Below, piece after piece: positions 944 through 11,364 of a DNA stretch of 29,593 nucleotides (position 1 is the first letter of the stretch; every line of letters begins with the position of its first letter). The stretch spans positions 1-29,593 of the forward strand of contig JACMQJ010000183.1 in assembly GCA_014377055.1 (NCBI GenBank). Reading direction: 5' to 3'. Both the position numbers and the translations under genes were made by a program. This stretch comes from Candidatus Sericytochromatia bacterium. Lineage in GTDB: Bacteria; Cyanobacteriota; Sericytochromatia; UBA7694; JACMQJ01. Below the pieces are notes generated by a model. That model searched no databases. It worked only from the letters and a program-made list of their open reading frames with translations, and was not told where the DNA came from.

Positions 944-2863
944 ATGGATATAAAAGAAGATTTAGAAAAAGTTCTGAAATTATTAAAGATAGAGCAAGAC
1001 GAAGAAATAAATCAATATAGATTAAAAGTTTTAGAAACACCATTATCCATAAGAAAAAAACAGGGTATTACTTGGTACCCAATATTAATTACTGATACTC
1101 AATTAAATTCAAATCAAAAAATATTAATAGAAGTTGAAAAAACAAATACGTCTGAGTCTTCCAATAATTTTCAACAAGGAAAAGTCATCGCTCTCTTTAG
1201 TAACTCTGAGCATAATAAAAATGACTTACCTTTTATCACAGGAATAATTACCTATTCAAAAAATAATAATTTAAAAATATCAATGAATACAGATGAATTA
1301 CCTGAATGGGTTGAAGATGGTAAGTTAGGGCTAGATTTATTTTATGATGAAAGAAGTTATAGAGAGATGAACTTTGCTGTAAATAAGGTAATTAGTTCAG
1401 AAAATAAACACATAGTAAGGCTAAAAGAGGTTTTATTAGGCTACCGTCAAGCCGAATTTGTTGATCAAGATGAAAAAATATTTTTTCCTGATTTAAATGA
1501 CTCACAAAATAATGCTATAAAAAAAATTGCCTCTGCTGTTGATTTAGCAATTATTCACGGTCCTCCAGGAACAGGTAAAACAACAACTTTGGTAAAAGCA
1601 ATCGAATATACTTTAAGAACTGAAAAGCAAGTCTTAGTTTCTGCACCTAGTAATACAGCTGTCGATTTATTAACTCAAAAAATTTCTGAGAATGGTATTA
1701 GAGTTATTAGGATAGGTCATCCTGCCAGAGTTTCAACACAATTACAAAAATATAGTTTGGACGAACAAATAATTAATCATGCTCATTATAAAGAATTAGT
1801 AAAGCTAAAAAAACAAGCAAATGAATTAAGAAATAAAGCAATTAAATTTAAAAGAAGTTTTGGTAGAGAAGAAAGAGAAAATAGAAAATCAATGCTACTT
1901 GAAGTTAAAGCGATGCTGGTGGATGTAAAAAAAATGGAAAAAAGTATTATAGATGATTTGTTTGATAAGGCTCAAGTTATTACTTGTACTCTTGTGGGAG
2001 CTTCTAGCAATGCTCTCAGGGACAAAATTTTTAGTACTGTCTTCATTGATGAAGCAGGACAAGCACTCGAAGCTAGTTGTTGGATTCCAATTATAAGGTC
2101 AAATAGAGTTATTCTTGCTGGTGATCACTTACAACTACCACCAACAATTAAATCTTATGAGGCAAGTAATCAAGGTATGAATATTACTTTATTTGAAAAA
2201 TGTATAAAAAAACAAAATGTCCATACTTTACTCCAAACACAATACAGAATGAATGACGAGATTATGAATTTTTCTAGTCAAAAATTTTATGATAGTCAGC
2301 TTAGATCAGATATAAGTGTTAAAGATCAGCTGTTATCTGATGATATTAATGATGAATTACTAGTTACTCCTGTTAATTTTATTGATACCGCAGGCTGTGG
2401 CTATACAGAAGAAATTAATAAGGAAACATTGAGCTTGTATAATACTGAGGAGGCATTTTTACTTTATAGACATCTAAATATACTTATTCAGCAATTAAGA
2501 GATCAAAAAGTAAGTATTGGTATTATTTCACCTTATAAAGATCAAGTAACTTTATTAAAAAAACTTTTAAATCATCAAATTATTCTTCCTGATAACATTA
2601 AGTTAGTGATAAATACTATTGATGGATTTCAAGGACAAGAAAAAGATATTATTTATATTAGTCTTGTTCGTAGCAATGATGAATCAAATATTGGCTTTTT
2701 ATCTGATATTAGACGAATGAATGTTGCCATGACTAGAGCTAAAAAAAAGTTAATAATAATAGGTGATAGCTCAACTATTGCTTCTGACAAATTTTATAAA
2801 GATTTTTTGGATTATATTGATTCGATAAATTCCTATAGTAGTGCTTGGGAATATATGGAATAA
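944..2863 (+). CDS. IGHMBP2/SMUBP-2 (DNA2/NAM7, Upf1-like) superfamily 1 helicase
   Basis: Walker A HGPPGTGKT, motif Ia APSNTAVD, Walker B IDEAGQ, GDHLQLPP, QYRM, TIDGFQGQEK, RRMNVAMTRAK. Confidence 0.92.
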   Translation: MDIKEDLEKVLKLLKIEQDEEINQYRLKVLETPLSIRKKQGITWYPILITDTQLNSNQKILIEVEKTNTSESSNNFQQGKVIALFSNSEHNKNDLPFITGIITYSKNNNLKISMNTDELPEWVEDGKLGLDLFYDERSYREMNFAVNKVISSENKHIVRLKEVLLGYRQAEFVDQDEKIFFPDLNDSQNNAIKKIASAVDLAIIHGPPGTGKTTTLVKAIEYTLRTEKQVLVSAPSNTAVDLLTQKISENGIRVIRIGHPARVSTQLQKYSLDEQIINHAHYKELVKLKKQANELRNKAIKFKRSFGREERENRKSMLLEVKAMLVDVKKMEKSIIDDLFDKAQVITCTLVGASSNALRDKIFSTVFIDEAGQALEASCWIPIIRSNRVILAGDHLQLPPTIKSYEASNQGMNITLFEKCIKKQNVHTLLQTQYRMNDEIMNFSSQKFYDSQLRSDISVKDQLLSDDINDELLVTPVNFIDTAGCGYTEEINKETLSLYNTEEAFLLYRHLNILIQQLRDQKVSIGIISPYKDQVTLLKKLLNHQIILPDNIKLVINTIDGFQGQEKDIIYISLVRSNDESNIGFLSDIRRMNVAMTRAKKKLIIIGDSSTIASDKFYKDFLDYIDSINSYSSAWEYME

Positions 2864-2920
2864 AAAGTAGTTAAGAAATATATGTAAATACAACACATAC
2901 TTAATGGTCTGTTGATTAAT

Positions 2921-2946
2921 AAAAAGAGGGTGAAGCTCCTCTTTTT
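2921..2946. terminator. Probable bidirectional intrinsic terminator between convergent genes
   Basis: aaaaagagg(g)-tgaagc-(t)cctcttttt hairpin with A and T tracts on both sides, between the helicase stop (2863) and the convergent ORF end (2956). Confidence 0.7.
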
Positions 2947-2955
2947 TTATTTTTG

Positions 2956-3789
2956 TTAGCTAAATTTGGTATTTAACTTATAGCCACAGTTACAATCAGC
3001 CACTATTTCATCTTTTGAATTAATAAGATACTCTAATGAACTAATACAGTTTGGGCATGTAATGTCATGACCTTTTCTTATTTTATGAACTAATTGAACT
3101 TCTTCCATTAAACTTAATCTTTTTATTGAGCTTACAGGAGCTAAAACAGCTCTTTTTACCATAACTGGTGACTTATTAGCATAAGCAAGTTTAGTTTTTC
3201 TTATCTTTTCTTTAAACAAATCTTTGGATTGCTTTTCTTTTTTGGTTACAGATTTAACATCAATATTACTTTCTCTATTTTGCTTAATTCTATCTCTATT
3301 TTGTTGATACCATTCTTTTTTGTAAGTTTTTATCTTATCTTTATTAGAATCAACATATTTTTTTACTTGTTCTCTAATTTTATCTTTATTTTTTTGATAA
3401 TACTTCCTTTTTTGATCTCTTAGTTTAGGTTTATTAGTTTCATAATAATCTTTTCTTTGCTCTCTAATCTTACCTTTATTTACTTCGTAGTAAGCTTTAC
3501 TTCTTTCTCTATTTTTGTCTTTATTAATTTGATACTGTGTTTTTTTGTAGTCCCTAATTTTATCTTTATTAGAATCTCTATAATCCTTCATATAATCTTT
3601 TATTTTATCTTTATTAGAATCACGGTACTTTTTTCTTTGTTCCTTGATCAAATCTTTATTCATTTCGCGATATTGCTTCATATAATCTTTTATTTTACTT
3701 TTGTTGACTACACGATATTCTTTAGCTTTTTCGCGTTTTTGAGTTTCTTCATAGTCATCAACTATAACAGTTTCTGTCAAATTATTCAT
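2956..3789 (-). CDS. Hypothetical protein: ~10 tandem 15-aa Lys/Tyr-rich helical repeats plus C-terminal Cys4 zinc ribbon
   Basis: Repeats NKDKIxxxxKxYxxx from residue 29 to about 168; C-terminal CPNC-x17-CNC; purine-rich agggtgg upstream of the ATG. Confidence 0.75.
   Translation of the reverse strand: MNNLTETVIVDDYEETQKREKAKEYRVVNKSKIKDYMKQYREMNKDLIKEQRKKYRDSNKDKIKDYMKDYRDSNKDKIRDYKKTQYQINKDKNRERSKAYYEVNKGKIREQRKDYYETNKPKLRDQKRKYYQKNKDKIREQVKKYVDSNKDKIKTYKKEWYQQNRDRIKQNRESNIDVKSVTKKEKQSKDLFKEKIRKTKLAYANKSPVMVKRAVLAPVSSIKRLSLMEEVQLVHKIRKGHDITCPNCISSLEYLINSKDEIVADCNCGYKLNTKFS
3285..3705 (-). repeat. Coding tandem repeat, 45-bp period, degenerate
   Basis: tttatctttattagaatc occurs exactly at 3559 and 3604 (45 bp apart); the protein shows nine consecutive 15-aa units beginning with NK, plus a tenth partial unit. 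Confidence 0.85.
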
Positions 3790-7297: not shown

Positions 7298-7467
7298 AAA
7301 ATAACTGGAAATAGTCTAAAAATATAATTATTAGATTAAGTAAAGATAATAAGAAATTTAATATTAAATTAAGAACAGATATACTATAATATATCTAACA
7401 AAATTAATTTTTTTTATTAACTTTTATAGTAGATTTTTGCTATATGTTAGTACAAGGTATAAAAATC

Positions 7468-8760
7468 ATGAAAAAATTGCATGCTTCTTCTTTAATAATC
7501 TCTGCTGTTTTAGCCTTGACTAGCTGTCAAAACTCAACTAATACTAGCTCTTATCAAAATGACCCATCAAATAACTCTGTGAATATAAGCTCTAATACAA
7601 ATCTAGCAACTAAAATATCTGTCACTAGTGATTCAAATGTGGTTAATACAGTCACTGATGACAAATATTGGAGTAAAATAGAACTAATAAGAACAACTGA
7701 TCCAAAAATAGCAGATGAAAAAATGCTTCCGAAAGGTCGTCAAAGAGATGCCGAAATTGTCAAATGTTTTGGTACAGATACGCCATCATCAAAAGATTTT
7801 TGTTTGCATGATGCAGGTGCTCCAGATAAATTAAAATATCCAACTCCTATTTTATTAGTTCATGGTGCTAATACAAATGCAACCAGATCATGGGCTGATC
7901 CCGATGGCGATGGTTCAAAGACAGGATTGATGCAATATCTCAAAGGTCAAGGTTATCATGTTTTTGCAATTACTTATGCTAACAAGCATGGAGATAACTA
8001 TATTTGGGCAAGTCATATTCATAGAGCTATTTCGAGAATAAAACAGATAACTAATGTTGATAAAGTTGACACACTTGGTCATAGTAAAGGTGGCTTTGCC
8101 CTTAGACTGTATGTTTCAAACGTAAATGATGGAACTTTTAGTTATGCTAATGATGTTAGAAAGGCGATTTTTGTTGCTTCACCACATAGAGGAATAGATT
8201 TATCATTTAGACATCCATCACTTCAATGGTTTTTGTATCCCGATAAAGATAACCCTTTAACTTATGCACCTATGGTTTGGACAAAAATATTATGGCAAGG
8301 TACATTTCAAGATTCAAAAGATTTAAGCTTTTCTGGTGAATACTTTCCTGGTCAATCTCAGTTAGTTGCTAGATTTGACAAAATACATGCGTTATCTCCT
8401 GTAGAGCCTGATTGGTATACAAGCTACAATGGAGGTCAGGGTCTTGTTAGCTATAGCCCTGGTATTGACGCTGTTATTAAACAAGGTGGAAATCTTGTTG
8501 ATAAAGTTATCAAATCACCTGTAGTTTCTACTGTTAAGGTTGCAGTACTTGCTGGTAATAATCCAAATGTACCAGGAATTGCCAATGAGTTAACAGGACC
8601 TAGTGATGGTATTGTTTTTGTAGCTAGTGCTAAAGCTACTGGTGATTTGACCGCTGGTGGAGCGACATTACTTGCTGAAAAATTAATGCCTCTAAATCAT
8701 TTATCATTAGTTTCAGATCCTACTTCCATGAAGTGGATTTCCGATCAATTAGCTAAATAA
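7468..8760 (+). CDS. Lipoprotein alpha/beta-hydrolase (lipase/esterase-like)
   Basis: The track ORF starts at 7444; ATG 7468 has an aaggt RBS and gives MKKLHAS...LALTSC (lipobox). Oxyanion LLVHG, nucleophile GHSKG, ASPHRG, SDGIV (Asp), LNHLSL (His). Confidence 0.82.
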   Translation: MKKLHASSLIISAVLALTSCQNSTNTSSYQNDPSNNSVNISSNTNLATKISVTSDSNVVNTVTDDKYWSKIELIRTTDPKIADEKMLPKGRQRDAEIVKCFGTDTPSSKDFCLHDAGAPDKLKYPTPILLVHGANTNATRSWADPDGDGSKTGLMQYLKGQGYHVFAITYANKHGDNYIWASHIHRAISRIKQITNVDKVDTLGHSKGGFALRLYVSNVNDGTFSYANDVRKAIFVASPHRGIDLSFRHPSLQWFLYPDKDNPLTYAPMVWTKILWQGTFQDSKDLSFSGEYFPGQSQLVARFDKIHALSPVEPDWYTSYNGGQGLVSYSPGIDAVIKQGGNLVDKVIKSPVVSTVKVAVLAGNNPNVPGIANELTGPSDGIVFVASAKATGDLTAGGATLLAEKLMPLNHLSLVSDPTSMKWISDQLAK

Positions 8761-8812: not shown

Positions 8813-10105
8813 TTATTTTTTCTCAGTATATTTTCTTAGAAACTCAATAATAGCTGCTGATTCACTTTTAGTGATAAGCTTTCTAGTTTTATACCTTGAT
8901 ACAATAGGTTCCCATTCATCGCCTGTATGAACATCTGGACTGATCAATATATGACATTTTGAACAATTATTGATATATAAAGTTCTTCCCTTATCAACAG
9001 TGTTCAAAGTTTCATTTTTTTCTAAGTCCTCAGCATCTATTTTTTTTAATAATAGCAAACTAAATATTTTTGGATATTCAAAATTACCCTTATAGGTTAG
9101 ACCTGCTTGTATCCCATAATAATTATCTATATTATTTCCTAAAATTGGTTTGTCAAACGCAAGATTAACATCAAAATTAGAAAATTTATATCCTAAATTT
9201 GGTCTAACAGATAAATAATTAGAGCTTTGAGCATTTCCATCATTAACAGTTGAATATCCATATAAGCTAATATCAAAATCAAACATAACTTTATATGAAA
9301 AAAGCTTTAAATTGAGTGGTTCAAGGATGTTGTTCTTACCCAAATCAAAAATATAATTTATTTGAGAAGAAAAGTTAGTATTAGTAATTGTTTTATCTGC
9401 ATTTGCAGTACTTAAAGAAAATCTATATTTGTAACCGATACCAGCTTGAGCATACAAAGAATCAAAATTATAAAGCTCAAATGGTTTGGTAGCTAGTAAC
9501 ATAATTCCTAAATCGGGTTGATTCTCTCCTACTGTAGATATTTTTAAAGTATCAGCTATAATTGAGCCAGGTGCTTTAGCATCAATTTGAACTGACAAAA
9601 TTACAGGTTTATCAATAATCTTAAATTTAAAATCAAACCATGGATTGGGTATGCTTGCAGGCTGACCAAAATTATATCTATAGGGGATATTAGCAAAAAA
9701 AGAAAGATTATCAATTATTCCCCATCCAAAACTTAAGTTAGGTTGGATAAATGAATAATTATGTTCATTAACTACTAGTAAACCATTACTATCAAAACTG
9801 CCATAAGCAAAATCTGTACTAAGTCCCAATCTAGCAAAAACTTCATTTCCCTTGAGGGTTGCCGCACCAGTAAATAAATTTGATGAGCCTCCTTGTTGAA
9901 TTTTTGGATAGTAGTTAAGATTATAAGCATCTTCTCTTGCTTTAGTTTCAATTACCTTTGTTTTTTTATTGAATTCTATTTCATCATCTGTTAAATCGTC
10001 AGCAAGCGAGGGATTATAATTTGAGCTAGATAATAAAAAAAATATTAGCATCGCTATACTCGTATTTTGATACTTTTTATTCTTATATCTTTTCTTTTTT
10101 GTCAA
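8813..10105 (-). CDS. Putative outer-membrane beta-barrel protein with C-terminal c-type cytochrome domain
   Basis: Signal-peptide-like N-terminus ending SLA-DD; many alternating amphipathic aromatic strands (FGWGIIDNLSFFANIPY, YAQAGIGYKYRF, VRPNLGYKF, YGIQAGLTY); C-terminal GRTLYINNCSKCH...P...EW heme motif at 8951-8965. Confidence 0.65.
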   Translation of the reverse strand: MTKKKRYKNKKYQNTSIAMLIFFLLSSSNYNPSLADDLTDDEIEFNKKTKVIETKAREDAYNLNYYPKIQQGGSSNLFTGAATLKGNEVFARLGLSTDFAYGSFDSNGLLVVNEHNYSFIQPNLSFGWGIIDNLSFFANIPYRYNFGQPASIPNPWFDFKFKIIDKPVILSVQIDAKAPGSIIADTLKISTVGENQPDLGIMLLATKPFELYNFDSLYAQAGIGYKYRFSLSTANADKTITNTNFSSQINYIFDLGKNNILEPLNLKLFSYKVMFDFDISLYGYSTVNDGNAQSSNYLSVRPNLGYKFSNFDVNLAFDKPILGNNIDNYYGIQAGLTYKGNFEYPKIFSLLLLKKIDAEDLEKNETLNTVDKGRTLYINNCSKCHILISPDVHTGDEWEPIVSRYKTRKLITKSESAAIIEFLRKYTEKK

Positions 10106-10272
10106 AATTATTTCTCCAAAATAAAACTACCATAATGTAATTCAACTTAATTTTAAATTATCTTTGCCTTAAAGCACAGCCCATAATGATTAAATAATTT
10201 TTAGTTATCAAAAATATTAAAGTTTAAATGTATAATTGTATAGAAAAATATTAAAAACCTAAAAAAATAAAT

Positions 10273-11364
10273 ATGGCTACAACATCAAGATTAAATATGA
10301 ACAAATTTATCAAAGATAGATCTGCTAAGAATGGATTAGCTCCTGGATCTCTAGTTCATATTGGAGCAAAAAAAATTGATCATGTTGAAATAGATTTGAT
10401 TGATTATAGTGAAAATCATTTTGAAGAAAAAAAGATTAGTTCTGTTAGAGATAGCTTACATCTAAAAGATAACCCAACTGTAACATGGGTAAATATTGAA
10501 GGTCTTGAAGATACTGATACTATAAAAGCGATAGGTGAGTATTTTGGTTCAAATCTTCTGATTCTTGAAGACATGCTTAATACAGATCAACGACCAAAAA
10601 TAGAGATATTTGATGATTATATTTTTATAGTTTTTAAAATGCTTTCATACAATGATAATCTTGATCAAATAAATACAGAACAAGTAAGTATTGTTTTTGG
10701 TAAAGATTATTTAATCTCACTACAAGAAGGAATTGAAGGTGATGTTTTTGAACCTGTTCGTAATCGACTTAGAAAAGGAAGTAACTATATTAGAAAAAAA
10801 GGAGCGGACTTTTTGGCTTATACGTTATTGGATGTAGTTATTGATAATTATTTTGATGTTCTCGAAAAAATTGGCGAAAAGATGGAGACTCTTGATGAGC
10901 AATTAATTAATAATCCAAGACCTGAAGTTTTACAAGAAATATATAATTTAAAAAGAGAAATTATTTTTATGCGTAAATCTATTTGGCCGATGCGTGAAAT
11001 AGTTAATCGCTTTGAACAAGTTGAATCCGAAATTGTCTGTCAAACAACAAGAGCCTATCTTAGAGATATATATGATCATATTATTCAGGTCATTGATACA
11101 GAAGAAACTTTTAGAGATATTATTTCAGGAATGATGGATTTGTATCTTTCAAGTATCAGTAATAGAATGAATGAGATAATGAAATTTTTATCAATTGTTG
11201 GAACTATTTTTATCCCTTTAACTTTTATTGTCGGTCTTTATGGTATGAATTTTGAATATATGCCAGAGCTAAAATCAAAGTATGGTTATCCAACTGTTGT
11301 TATTATTATGGTGTTAGTTGCTACATCAATGGTTGCATTTTTTAAAAAGAAAAAATGGCTTTAA
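10273..11364 (+). CDS. corA: Magnesium/cobalt transporter CorA
   Basis: GLAPGSLVHIG start, DQRPKIE, YLRDIYDH, NRMNEIMKFL, signature YGMNF, two C-terminal transmembrane helices, KKKKWL end. Confidence 0.95.
   Translation: MATTSRLNMNKFIKDRSAKNGLAPGSLVHIGAKKIDHVEIDLIDYSENHFEEKKISSVRDSLHLKDNPTVTWVNIEGLEDTDTIKAIGEYFGSNLLILEDMLNTDQRPKIEIFDDYIFIVFKMLSYNDNLDQINTEQVSIVFGKDYLISLQEGIEGDVFEPVRNRLRKGSNYIRKKGADFLAYTLLDVVIDNYFDVLEKIGEKMETLDEQLINNPRPEVLQEIYNLKREIIFMRKSIWPMREIVNRFEQVESEIVCQTTRAYLRDIYDHIIQVIDTEETFRDIISGMMDLYLSSISNRMNEIMKFLSIVGTIFIPLTFIVGLYGMNFEYMPELKSKYGYPTVVIIMVLVATSMVAFFKKKKWL

Follow-up and report, generated by a model that had tools for sequence, protein, structure and literature searches.

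Introduction

In the MtrAB, PioAB and Geobacter complexes, a multihaem cytochrome is lodged in a large barrel of 20 or more strands. Periplasmic cytochromes of Neisseria are held at the outer membrane by a lipid anchor, and are not fused to a barrel. To our knowledge, fused barrel-cytochromes are represented so far by essentially Cyc2 alone, which serves as a marker for neutrophilic iron oxidation. In Cyc2, the haem domain comes first and is followed by a 16-strand OprO/P-like porin (PMC8406198). Pput2725, a COG4313 channel, is a barrel of 12 strands closed off on its periplasmic side, and its class is thought to pass hydrophobic molecules and to be poorly permeable to ions (PMC4493636). FapF, too, has 12 strands and is closed off on that side (PMC5557850). 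As for c-type haems, the same site is ligated by His-Met in canonical bacterial peroxidases and by His-Tyr in MauG, which amounts to a functional switch: from His-Met to His-Tyr there is a large potential drop, and electron transfer gives way to high-valent chemistry (PMC11892367).

We report here the analysis of one gene in a stretch of 29,593 nucleotides, called below the window (contig JACMQJ010000183.1, assembly GCA_014377055.1). The source organism, Candidatus Sericytochromatia bacterium, is an uncultured, non-photosynthetic relative of cyanobacteria, and its habitat is glacier, ice and sediment. According to the original prediction, the gene encodes an outer-membrane barrel fused to a C-terminal c-type cytochrome, possibly a reversed Cyc2, a porin-cytochrome conduit or a sensing barrel. 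The fusion is a conserved design, undescribed so far.

Results

A single gene encodes the barrel and the haem domain

The gene lies on the minus strand as a single uninterrupted ORF of 430 aa (plus stop), whose product is called P0001. Read from the sequence, it starts with a TTG codon (10103-10105, minus strand). Its features are listed below, with the evidence for each in brackets.

8813..10105, minus strand: whole gene, with signal peptide, N-terminal helix and plug, 12-strand barrel, linker and haem c domain (ORF, model, homologues)
10113..10117, minus strand: ribosome-binding site GGAGA, 7 nt upstream of the TTG (read from sequence)
10001..10105, minus strand: predicted Sec-type signal peptide, residues 1-35, predicted cleavage SLA/DD (read from sequence)
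9932..9988, minus strand: predicted N-terminal periplasmic helix, residues 40-58, fusion clade only (model, pLDDT about 89)
9845..9931, minus strand: N-terminal segment NLNYYPK...LFTGAATL, residues 59-87, predicted to plug the lumen from the periplasmic side (structural alignment, conservation)
9083..9844, minus strand: predicted 12-strand outer-membrane beta-barrel of the COG4313/FapF class, residues 88-341 (model, structural matches, PF13557 relatives)
9014..9082, minus strand: linker EYPKIFSLLLLKKIDAEDLEK, residues 342-364, short and conserved (alignments, conservation)
8816..9013, minus strand: three-helix mono-haem c-type cytochrome domain, residues 365-430, of the small DHC/Dehyd-heme_bind-like class (Pfam, structure, profile alignment)
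8951..8965, minus strand: CSKCH, residues 381-385, invariant covalent attachment site for haem c, with the proximal His (alignments)
8891..8893, minus strand: Tyr405, invariant at the axial-Met column, candidate sixth haem ligand (alignments, profile-profile comparison)

The N-terminus reads as a signal peptide, as had been noticed, and one of Sec type, with a K/R-rich n-region followed by a hydrophobic core and a putative cleavage site after residue 35. The intact ORF, the model and the homologues agree, and it is confirmed that an outer-membrane barrel and a C-terminal c-type haem domain belong to one real gene, as the original prediction had it.

Public contigs aligned to the gene were short pieces only. 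One of them, a 206-nt piece from another study, was identical over the boundary between barrel end and linker (9047-9252); since it stops short of the CxxCH, conservation across genomes was used as evidence for the join. A variant from another glacier sample, 8891 A>G, changes TAT to TAC and is synonymous at Tyr405.

The fusion was present in 4 of the 5 Sericytochromatia genomes of the same family (G001-G004), and in about 14 metagenomic relatives (each standing for a cluster in a set of 1.84 billion proteins) at 27-92% identity. A survey of 301 genomes of the phylum found it confined to family f1. The same architecture, CxxCH included, recurs in independent genomes and in metagenomes, which disposes of the foreseen objection that an assembly or frameshift error had created the join. 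One fusion homologue, P0014, has a duplicated barrel. The barrel phylogeny placed the fusion barrels in a single clade (99/99 support); it did not single out the donor barrel lineage, and orthology of the sister-family barrels was not demonstrable. The N-terminal haem-barrel arrangement was found in none of the 150 relatives listed. Two Bacteroidota proteins, L024 and L026, were considered as barrel and CxxCH fusions and rejected: each has two CxxCH and resembles, by eye, the soluble di-haem peroxidases.

The barrel is predicted to be of the plugged, 12-strand class

An AlphaFold2 model was built on a 52-sequence alignment (mean pLDDT 89.2, pTM 0.81). An earlier prediction on 7 sequences was not usable (pLDDT 48), and a 109-sequence alignment mixing barrel-only and cytochrome-only proteins, in which the modules were misaligned, was set aside. 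Twelve beta-strands are found in the model between residues 88 and 341, that is a barrel of about 254 aa and not the ~300 aa initially proposed. It ends on an internal beta-signal-like sequence, ...GLTYKGNF, where barrel-only relatives stop with a C-terminal Phe.

The top structural match was 4rl8_A (Pput2725), with Z 23.1 and an rmsd of 2.7 A over 240 residues; the alignment covers chain residues 2-268 and starts at model residue 71 versus chain residue 2. FapF (5o65_A) gave Z 21.7, with a match starting at model residue 54 versus FapF residue 88, in the plug region. According to the model, the barrel is of the plugged COG4313/FapF class, and not of the 16-strand porin class. With 12 strands and an N-terminal segment aligned with the lumen-occluding segments of Pput2725 and FapF, the protein does not fit the reversed Cyc2 or porin-cytochrome conduit first envisaged. 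The Mtr-type reading fails because such conduits need a multihaem wire, and P0001, with 12 strands, has one haem, unlike the MtrAB, PioAB and Geobacter complexes; nor did P0001 match MtrB_PioB in Pfam at E<=10, a relationship that had been suggested for checking.

PF13557, also suggested, gave a mixed answer. It was matched by 8 of the 52 aligned relatives, all eight barrel-only (best E 1.3e-13), and the best solved structure is a COG4313 protein; P0001 itself had no Pfam match to it at E<=10 and, being below threshold, is a distant superfamily member at most. Like the COG4313/PF13557 channels (Pput2725 4rl8, SphA, TcpY), P0001 is predicted to have 12 strands, and its N-terminal segment may likewise lie in the lumen, but it has in addition a helix at the N-terminus and a haem domain at the C-terminus, and no aromatic or lipid catabolic genes are near it. 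The likeness to FapF lies in a predicted plugged 12-strand barrel that follows a periplasmic helix, FapF having a periplasmic coiled coil at the place matching helix 40-58 (PMC5557850). FapF differs in having no cytochrome, and no fap operon (FapA-E, C39 peptidase FapD) was found in the window.

The haem domain carries Tyr at the position of the axial Met

The C-terminal domain superimposes on cytochromes c of ~86 aa with a TM of 0.68-0.74. It has the features of a class I-like small cytochrome, namely a CxxCH with the proximal His in the N-terminal helix, and a three-helix fold. P0001 scored below the Pfam threshold for every cytochrome family, PF09626 (18.3 bits, cutoff 22.2) and PF13442 (17.1, cutoff 27) included, and a profile search of the PDB with the haem domain gave weak matches only, the best being 3u99 (E 1.8e-4). 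The CxxCH is at 8951-8965, as claimed, and its Cys, Cys and His are invariant across every homologue with a haem domain, far above chance. DSSP assigns residues 355 and 388 of the model as bridge residues, and the model suggests packing of the KID part of the linker against the haem domain.

At the column seven residues past the conserved Trp, Tyr was found in 16 of 16 fusion-clade domains and Met in 143 of 163 other related domains, in agreement with the proposal that Tyr stands in place of the distal Met. When Tyr-type and Met-type domains were compared profile to profile (hhalign, 99.8% probability, E 4.7e-29), Tyr405 fell on the Met column. The sole invariant residues in 23 Tyr-type domains are Cys, Cys, His and Tyr. 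Judging from these alignments, the haem most likely has Tyr405, and not Met, as its sixth ligand. Alternatively, the haem could be five-coordinate, with Tyr405 in its second sphere. The extra His that had been pointed out in the DVH motif, His393, is present, but only in P0001 and its 92% relative, so that it is no conserved ligand candidate. The di-haem enzymes MauG, BthA and MbnH, with two haems, belong to another fold and family, and their likeness to the present domain is the ligand swap only.

The haem module descends from lipoprotein cytochromes

Small lipoprotein cytochromes (DHC/Dehyd-heme_bind-like) are homologous to the haem domain and share its three-helix fold. They are free-standing, about 100 aa long, lipid-anchored and mostly of the Met type, whereas here a barrel is the anchor and Tyr replaces Met. 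Stand-alone lipoproteins of the Tyr type have a lipobox Cys followed by FFALLMAPKI..DDL, a motif common to the fusion linker, and the linker is homologous to this segment. The barrel-like and cytochrome genes of the sister family are separate, unlinked, and on different contigs. Since the cytochrome of the sister family stands alone as a lipoprotein and has this motif after its Cys, the barrel appears to have replaced the lipid anchor in the fusion family. We conclude from these alignments that small lipoprotein cytochromes gave rise to the haem module, and that the fusion probably arose independently of Cyc2, the comparison with Cyc2 being based on its published description.

Genome context

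The genome was searched for cytochrome c maturation genes, as had been advised, and System II was found (ResB, CcsA). Also encoded are two CCP_MauG proteins, one DHOR, a subunit of a cbb3-type oxidase and further periplasmic cytochromes. The gene neighbours in the window are an alpha/beta hydrolase and CorA, and no electron-transfer genes were found among them. Neighbours vary between fusion loci, and none is conserved that would point to a substrate or partner. No barrels were seen beside stand-alone Tyr-type cytochromes at the loci examined; the genes next to related Met-type cytochromes of Flavobacteriia encode a prolyl isomerase and a fasciclin protein, and no barrel. A complex prediction for the barrel and the lipoprotein cytochrome of a sister-family genome (G006) gave a score of 0.00, which is neutral on binding.

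Discussion

Because the number of strands is even (12), both termini would be periplasmic, and the haem domain would lie under the barrel, not within or beyond it; strand parity, together with the linker length and the high pTM, is the ground for this position. In the OmpA-type architecture, as proposed here for P0001, the barrel comes first and a periplasmic domain forms the C-terminus, the domain of OmpA itself binding peptidoglycan.

On function, we infer every step. The protein would be exported by Sec, and System II (CcsBA) would load the haem onto the CxxCH on the outer side of the inner membrane. Next, a 12-strand barrel of the COG4313/FapF class, its lumen occluded by the conserved N-terminal segment, would be inserted by BAM, and a linker of about 10-20 residues would keep the haem domain directly below the barrel mouth. 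The haem module would be a captured small lipoprotein cytochrome, for which the barrel now serves instead of the lipid anchor. By analogy with MauG-type as against canonical peroxidase haems, Tyr ligation would strongly lower the potential and favour catalytic or high-valent chemistry, or ligand switching, over electron shuttling. The haem may oxidise or reduce a small substrate leaving the channel, probably hydrophobic, aromatic or a metal, or it may gate the channel. It would not form a transmembrane electron wire, because one haem cannot span the membrane. Taking alignments, model and analogy together, we judge the chances to be even that P0001 combines a channel with a periplasmic haem of its own at the mouth, probably ligated by His and Tyr and serving redox chemistry or gating.

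Alternatively, it may be that only the anchor was exchanged. The barrel could be a mere anchor, its channel unrelated or vestigial, and the cytochrome an ordinary periplasmic redox partner, for instance for di-haem peroxidases. There are lipoproteins among the stand-alone relatives, the sister family keeps its barrel-like and cytochrome genes unlinked, the genome has the two CCP_MauG proteins and the DHOR, and a conserved operon was not seen at the fusion loci, all of which would suit this scheme. Conservation within the fusion clade does not: it is highest in the plug (0.64) and linker (0.63), and lower in the barrel (0.49). The tether is very short, and the fusion has survived divergence to about 27% identity as well as the barrel duplication of P0014, which, with the conservation of plug and linker, argues that selection acts on the combination. 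We regard a simple change of anchor as unlikely.

P0001 could also work in the manner of Cyc2, as the reversed Cyc2 of the original prediction: a soluble donor or acceptor from outside the cell, for example Fe(II), would diffuse into the barrel and exchange electrons with the haem at its inner mouth, and the haem in turn with periplasmic carriers. In both proteins a single polypeptide combines a Sec signal, an outer-membrane beta-barrel and one CxxCH for haem c, and in both the periplasmic attachment of haem must precede barrel insertion. As in Cyc2 (PMC8406198), one haem is joined to a barrel, the short linker keeps the haem near the barrel, the cbb3-type oxidase subunit and periplasmic cytochromes of the genome could take electrons, and the glacier, ice and sediment habitat would be compatible. 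The domain order, however, is reversed relative to the Cyc2 of Acidithiobacillus and Zetaproteobacteria, the haem being C-terminal here (381-385 of 430), and the predicted barrel is plugged, has 12 strands and not 16, and belongs to a class thought poorly ion-permeable. Tyr replaces the Met-type ligand, and a Tyr-ligated haem is expected to be of low potential and ill suited to Fe(II) oxidation. The gene neighbourhood, moreover, is without electron-transfer genes, and a Cyc2-like enzyme seems to us quite improbable.

A gate sensing redox state or gas, close to one suggestion of the original prediction, would have the haem domain cap the mouth, a switch of the Tyr ligand (upon reduction, or with NO, CO or O2) moving the plug. 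Met would have been exchanged for a weaker, displaceable ligand, the barrel is of a plugged class in which the plug of FapF is regulated by a periplasmic N-terminal domain (PMC5557850), and in the model the fusion-specific N-terminal helix is on the same side as the haem domain and adjoins it. Such a gate is nevertheless very doubtful, as a haem-gated outer-membrane barrel has no precedent and no signalling partner is nearby. Finally, an inverse autotransporter (intimin/invasin, type Ve), whose linker would thread back through the barrel to place the cytochrome on the surface, has the right order of barrel then passenger, the 12 strands and a structural match of Z 15 to the intimin and invasin barrels, but it is scarcely credible given the far better matches to COG4313 and FapF (Z 22-23), an N-terminal segment that aligns with the segments closing the lumen in these channels, a linker of only ~23 residues that is partly within the haem domain fold, and the need for a haem-loaded domain to pass through a narrow pore.

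Coming back to a channel with a haem at its periplasmic mouth, we put forward, tentatively and as a rather improbable possibility, that it defines a new outer-membrane class of small-molecule channels, in which a tyrosinate-ligated c-haem performs oxidative chemistry (high-valent as in MauG, or peroxidatic) or reductive chemistry on molecules in transit, or gates the channel through a ligand switch driven by redox state or gas. If true, no earlier 12-strand channel would be known to be coupled to a haem, and no earlier family of small class-I-type cytochromes c to have His/Tyr ligation. The fusion is a second, probably independent barrel-cytochrome fusion, in non-photosynthetic relatives of cyanobacteria; it has another barrel class, the domains in opposite order and a haem ligand predicted to be different, and the diversity of haem-loaded outer-membrane proteins exceeds what marker-gene searches assume. 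The Tyr-for-Met subfamily, comprising lipoproteins and fusions of about 65-100 aa, may offer a tractable system for the tuning of c-haem by tyrosinate. The fusion also hints, in a testable way, that small lipoprotein cytochromes may act at outer-membrane channels, and it provides an expressible target for the little-known envelope biology of cold-environment Sericytochromatia.

A single gene for a barrel and a cytochrome

The gene under study and its surroundings are arranged as follows.

7444-8760 (+), secreted alpha/beta hydrolase, flanking gene
8813-10105 (-), fusion gene, one uninterrupted ORF of 430 codons
10103-10105 (-), TTG start codon, read from the sequence
10113-10117 (-), GGAGA, 7 nt upstream of the TTG start
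10273-11364 (+), CorA, flanking gene

Both flanking genes are on the opposite strand, so the fusion gene stands alone. The N-terminus (K/R-rich n-region, hydrophobic core, SLA|DD after residue 35) reads, from the sequence, as a Sec signal peptide. The convergent hydrolase (438 aa) has matches to Lipase_2, Palm_thioest and DUF7379, a lipoprotein-like signal (…ALTSC) and a long linker rich in Ser and Asn. No neighbour of the fusion gene was conserved across the loci examined, and the neighbours give no help in choosing between mechanisms. At one metagenomic locus (L037:43-1523 and 2812-3318), two genes for small, paralogous proteins resembling outer-membrane proteins (233 and 251 aa, both ending in ...FFSI) precede the fusion gene, and a 168-aa Peptidase_C39-like gene follows it, an arrangement not conserved at other loci. 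A C39 peptidase is also employed by FapF systems.

The G+C content of the window is ∼28%, and the source MAG comprises 753 contigs (87% complete). Near-identical DNA is present in glacier, ice and sediment metagenomes. In one glacier sequence from another study, position 8891, the third codon position of Tyr405, shows A>G; the change (TAT to TAC) is synonymous, and Tyr is therefore kept in that strain.

The original prediction of a barrel and a cytochrome fused in one gene held when relatives were surveyed. A word-indexed search gave six relatives (42-92% identity), in all of which CxKCH is invariant, and an exhaustive profile search covering 1.84 billion cluster representatives yielded about 14 full-length proteins in which the parts follow one another in this order, the most distant at about 27-30% identity. 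Whole-genome searches detected the fusion in 4 of the 5 other genomes of the family (in G001, the homologue is 44% identical); the fifth, where it was not found, is 75% complete. Among 301 genomes of the phylum, no fusion was found outside family f1, that of the source genome. In a phylogeny, barrels from the fusion proteins group together as a single clade (99/99 support). An assembly or frameshift artefact is excluded. One of the ∼14 full-length proteins, from the same family (P0014, 687 aa, L007:541-2616 (+), contig G003:C1), has two tandem barrel modules, each having a conserved N-terminal segment, and then one haem domain of the same Tyr type (see below).

The barrel resembles plugged twelve-strand channels

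AlphaFold2 run with 7 sequences gave a pLDDT of 48. With a checked 52-row alignment of fusions and barrel-only relatives as input, a model with a pLDDT of 89.2 and a pTM of 0.81 was obtained, with the following elements.

Residues 40-58, helix
Residues 59-87, conserved coil segment
Residues 88 to 341, twelve strands
Residues 346-351 and 358-363, short helices
Residues 365-384, 395-407 and 413-428, three helices

Foldseek and VIA-align agreed on the class of barrel. The closest structure is the COG4313 channel Pput2725 (4rl8_A; Z 23.1, rmsd 2.7 Å over 240 residues, model 71-340 against chain 2-268), followed by FapF (5o65_A; Z 21.7, model 54-340); autotransporter, KdgM/NanC and intimin barrels score well below these (Z 15-19). 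Pput2725 (PMC4493636) and FapF (PMC5557850) are both 12-strand barrels whose periplasmic side is occluded by a segment ahead of strand 1. The cargo of Pput2725 is thought to be hydrophobic molecules, not ions.

The protein itself (P0001) matches no Pfam barrel model above threshold. The suggestion of PF13557 (Phenol_MetA_deg) is nevertheless sound at the superfamily level, since 8 barrel-only relatives in the alignment match it (best 1.3e-13). The C-terminal Phe of the barrel-only relatives aligns exactly with the end of this barrel (...YKGNF), and the beta-signal has therefore become internal in the fusion, as it has in OmpA-like proteins. Sister-family barrel-only relatives (L008:1396-2358 (-), L010:1123-2115 (+), P0022, P0026 and P0111) form their own clade, with a conserved C-terminal tail past the last strand (...P-x-x-G-V/I-G-L-R-G...).

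A tyrosine at the position of the distal methionine

Residues 369-429 gave sub-threshold Pfam matches only (DHC, 18.3 bits; Cytochrome_CBB3, 17.1 bits), and a PDB profile search only weak ones, including the di-haem cytochrome 3u99 (E 1.8e-4). In the ESM Atlas, the domain groups with ∼86-aa cytochromes c (TM 0.68-0.74), and the haem part of the profile is matched by over 100 cytochromes, either small (about 100 aa) or tandem.

The replacement of the distal Met by Tyr, noticed originally, was borne out: seven residues past the conserved Trp, Met is found in 143 of 163 related domains and Tyr in all 16 domains of the fusion clade, as well as in about a dozen stand-alone proteins. In a profile-profile comparison of Tyr-type against Met-type domains (99.8% probability, E 4.7e-29), Tyr405 falls on the Met column, and among 23 aligned Tyr-type domains nothing is invariant but this Tyr, both Cys and the His. 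The "extra His" (DVH, His393) fared less well, being confined to this protein and the relative at 92% identity. Because Tyr occupies the Met column and the alignment has no further conserved His, Met, Lys or Cys, Tyr405 is the best candidate for the sixth haem ligand. There is direct precedent for such a difference at a homologous haem: the E haem of canonical bacterial cytochrome c peroxidases is His-Met and of high potential, whereas its counterpart in MauG-type enzymes is His-Tyr and differs in potential and chemistry (PMC11892367).

A second, unrelated fusion context was seen in P0044 (354 aa, JGI metagenome, source label CcmH/NrfG), in which a C-terminal Tyr-type haem domain follows, by eye, an N-terminal zinc-ribbon region, a hydrophobic segment and TPR-like repeats.

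The maturation check proposed originally was positive: the genome encodes ResB/CcsB and a CcsA-type protein, and can make c-type cytochromes. It also encodes a cbb3-type oxidase subunit, two CCP_MauG proteins, DHOR and a six-haem cytochrome. A 630-aa protein (L032, G000:C708:3541-5430 (+)) has six CxxCH sites and a weak MtrC/MtrF domain II/IV-like match, and a FixO-cytochrome c fusion (L033, G000:C484:5425-6336 (+)) lies 1.5 kb downstream of ResB.

Placement of the haem and possible functions

With twelve strands, both termini would lie in the periplasm. The loop pattern of the model fits this, with long loops at 105-117, 146-155, 178-197 and 229-247 and tight turns at 132-133, 165-168 and 309-310. 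The N-terminal segment aligns structurally with the segments that fill the lumen in Pput2725 and FapF, which would leave no room for a C-terminal linker to thread through. DSSP assigns isolated bridges to residues 355 and 388, a hint that the linker's KID motif belongs to the cytochrome fold; if so, the stretch between the last strand and the haem domain would be no more than about 10 residues long, hydrophobic helix 346-351 included. Conservation is highest in the plug segment (0.64) and linker (0.63), against 0.49 in the barrel. If the geometry drawn from the model is right, the haem is held directly below the channel mouth. A single periplasmic haem on a narrow, plugged 12-strand barrel cannot be an Mtr-like wire across the membrane. 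Cyc2, too, is unlike this protein, having a different number of strands, another order of domains and probably another ligand.

We give about an even chance to a channel carrying its own periplasmic, probably tyrosinate-ligated haem, whose role would be to act on a small substrate as it passes through or to gate its passage. Under this reading, the architecture is very probable and the periplasmic placement likely, while His/Tyr ligation is only slightly favoured. A pure anchor swap, in which the barrel has a function unrelated to the haem, is unlikely. Somewhat less likely again is a Cyc2-like oxidase with a diffusible, extracellular donor. A redox- or gas-sensing gate, which overlaps with the channel-borne haem, is improbable. 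Surface display in the style of inverse autotransporters is very improbable.

Origin of the fusion

Stand-alone Tyr-type proteins start with a lipoprotein-like signal peptide and a lipobox Cys, behind which lie a short run of hydrophobic residues and a P-K-(I/T)-x-x-(D/E)-x-L motif; Met-type relatives are likewise lipoprotein-like in appearance. The fusion linker IFSLLLLKKIDAEDL is that post-Cys segment without signal peptide and Cys. A stand-alone Tyr-type gene was present in every genome searched of the sister family f2, and a distantly related barrel-only gene in 9 of 13, on a different contig. Neither was found in other families of the class, where ResB is present in 38 of 41 genomes. The barrel phylogeny identified no donor lineage.

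The sister family's stand-alone cytochrome gene runs 4-20 nt into the start of a mutY-like gene (HhH-GPD plus NUDIX_4), a pairing kept in three loci (L039:2952-3275 (-), L040:2691-3041 (-), also L027:5001-5318), which suggests that a periplasmic cytochrome and a DNA glycosylase gene are co-transcribed there.

No homologue carries a name, and no Pfam or NCBIfam family covers the protein. AlphaFold DB clusters include this barrel type fused to other domains, with no cytochrome-fused protein among the 30 cluster matches listed. The fused barrel-cytochrome has an independent origin. Its simplest history is that, in the ancestor of family f1, a barrel gene captured a lipoprotein cytochrome, and the barrel would then have taken over the role of the lipid anchor.
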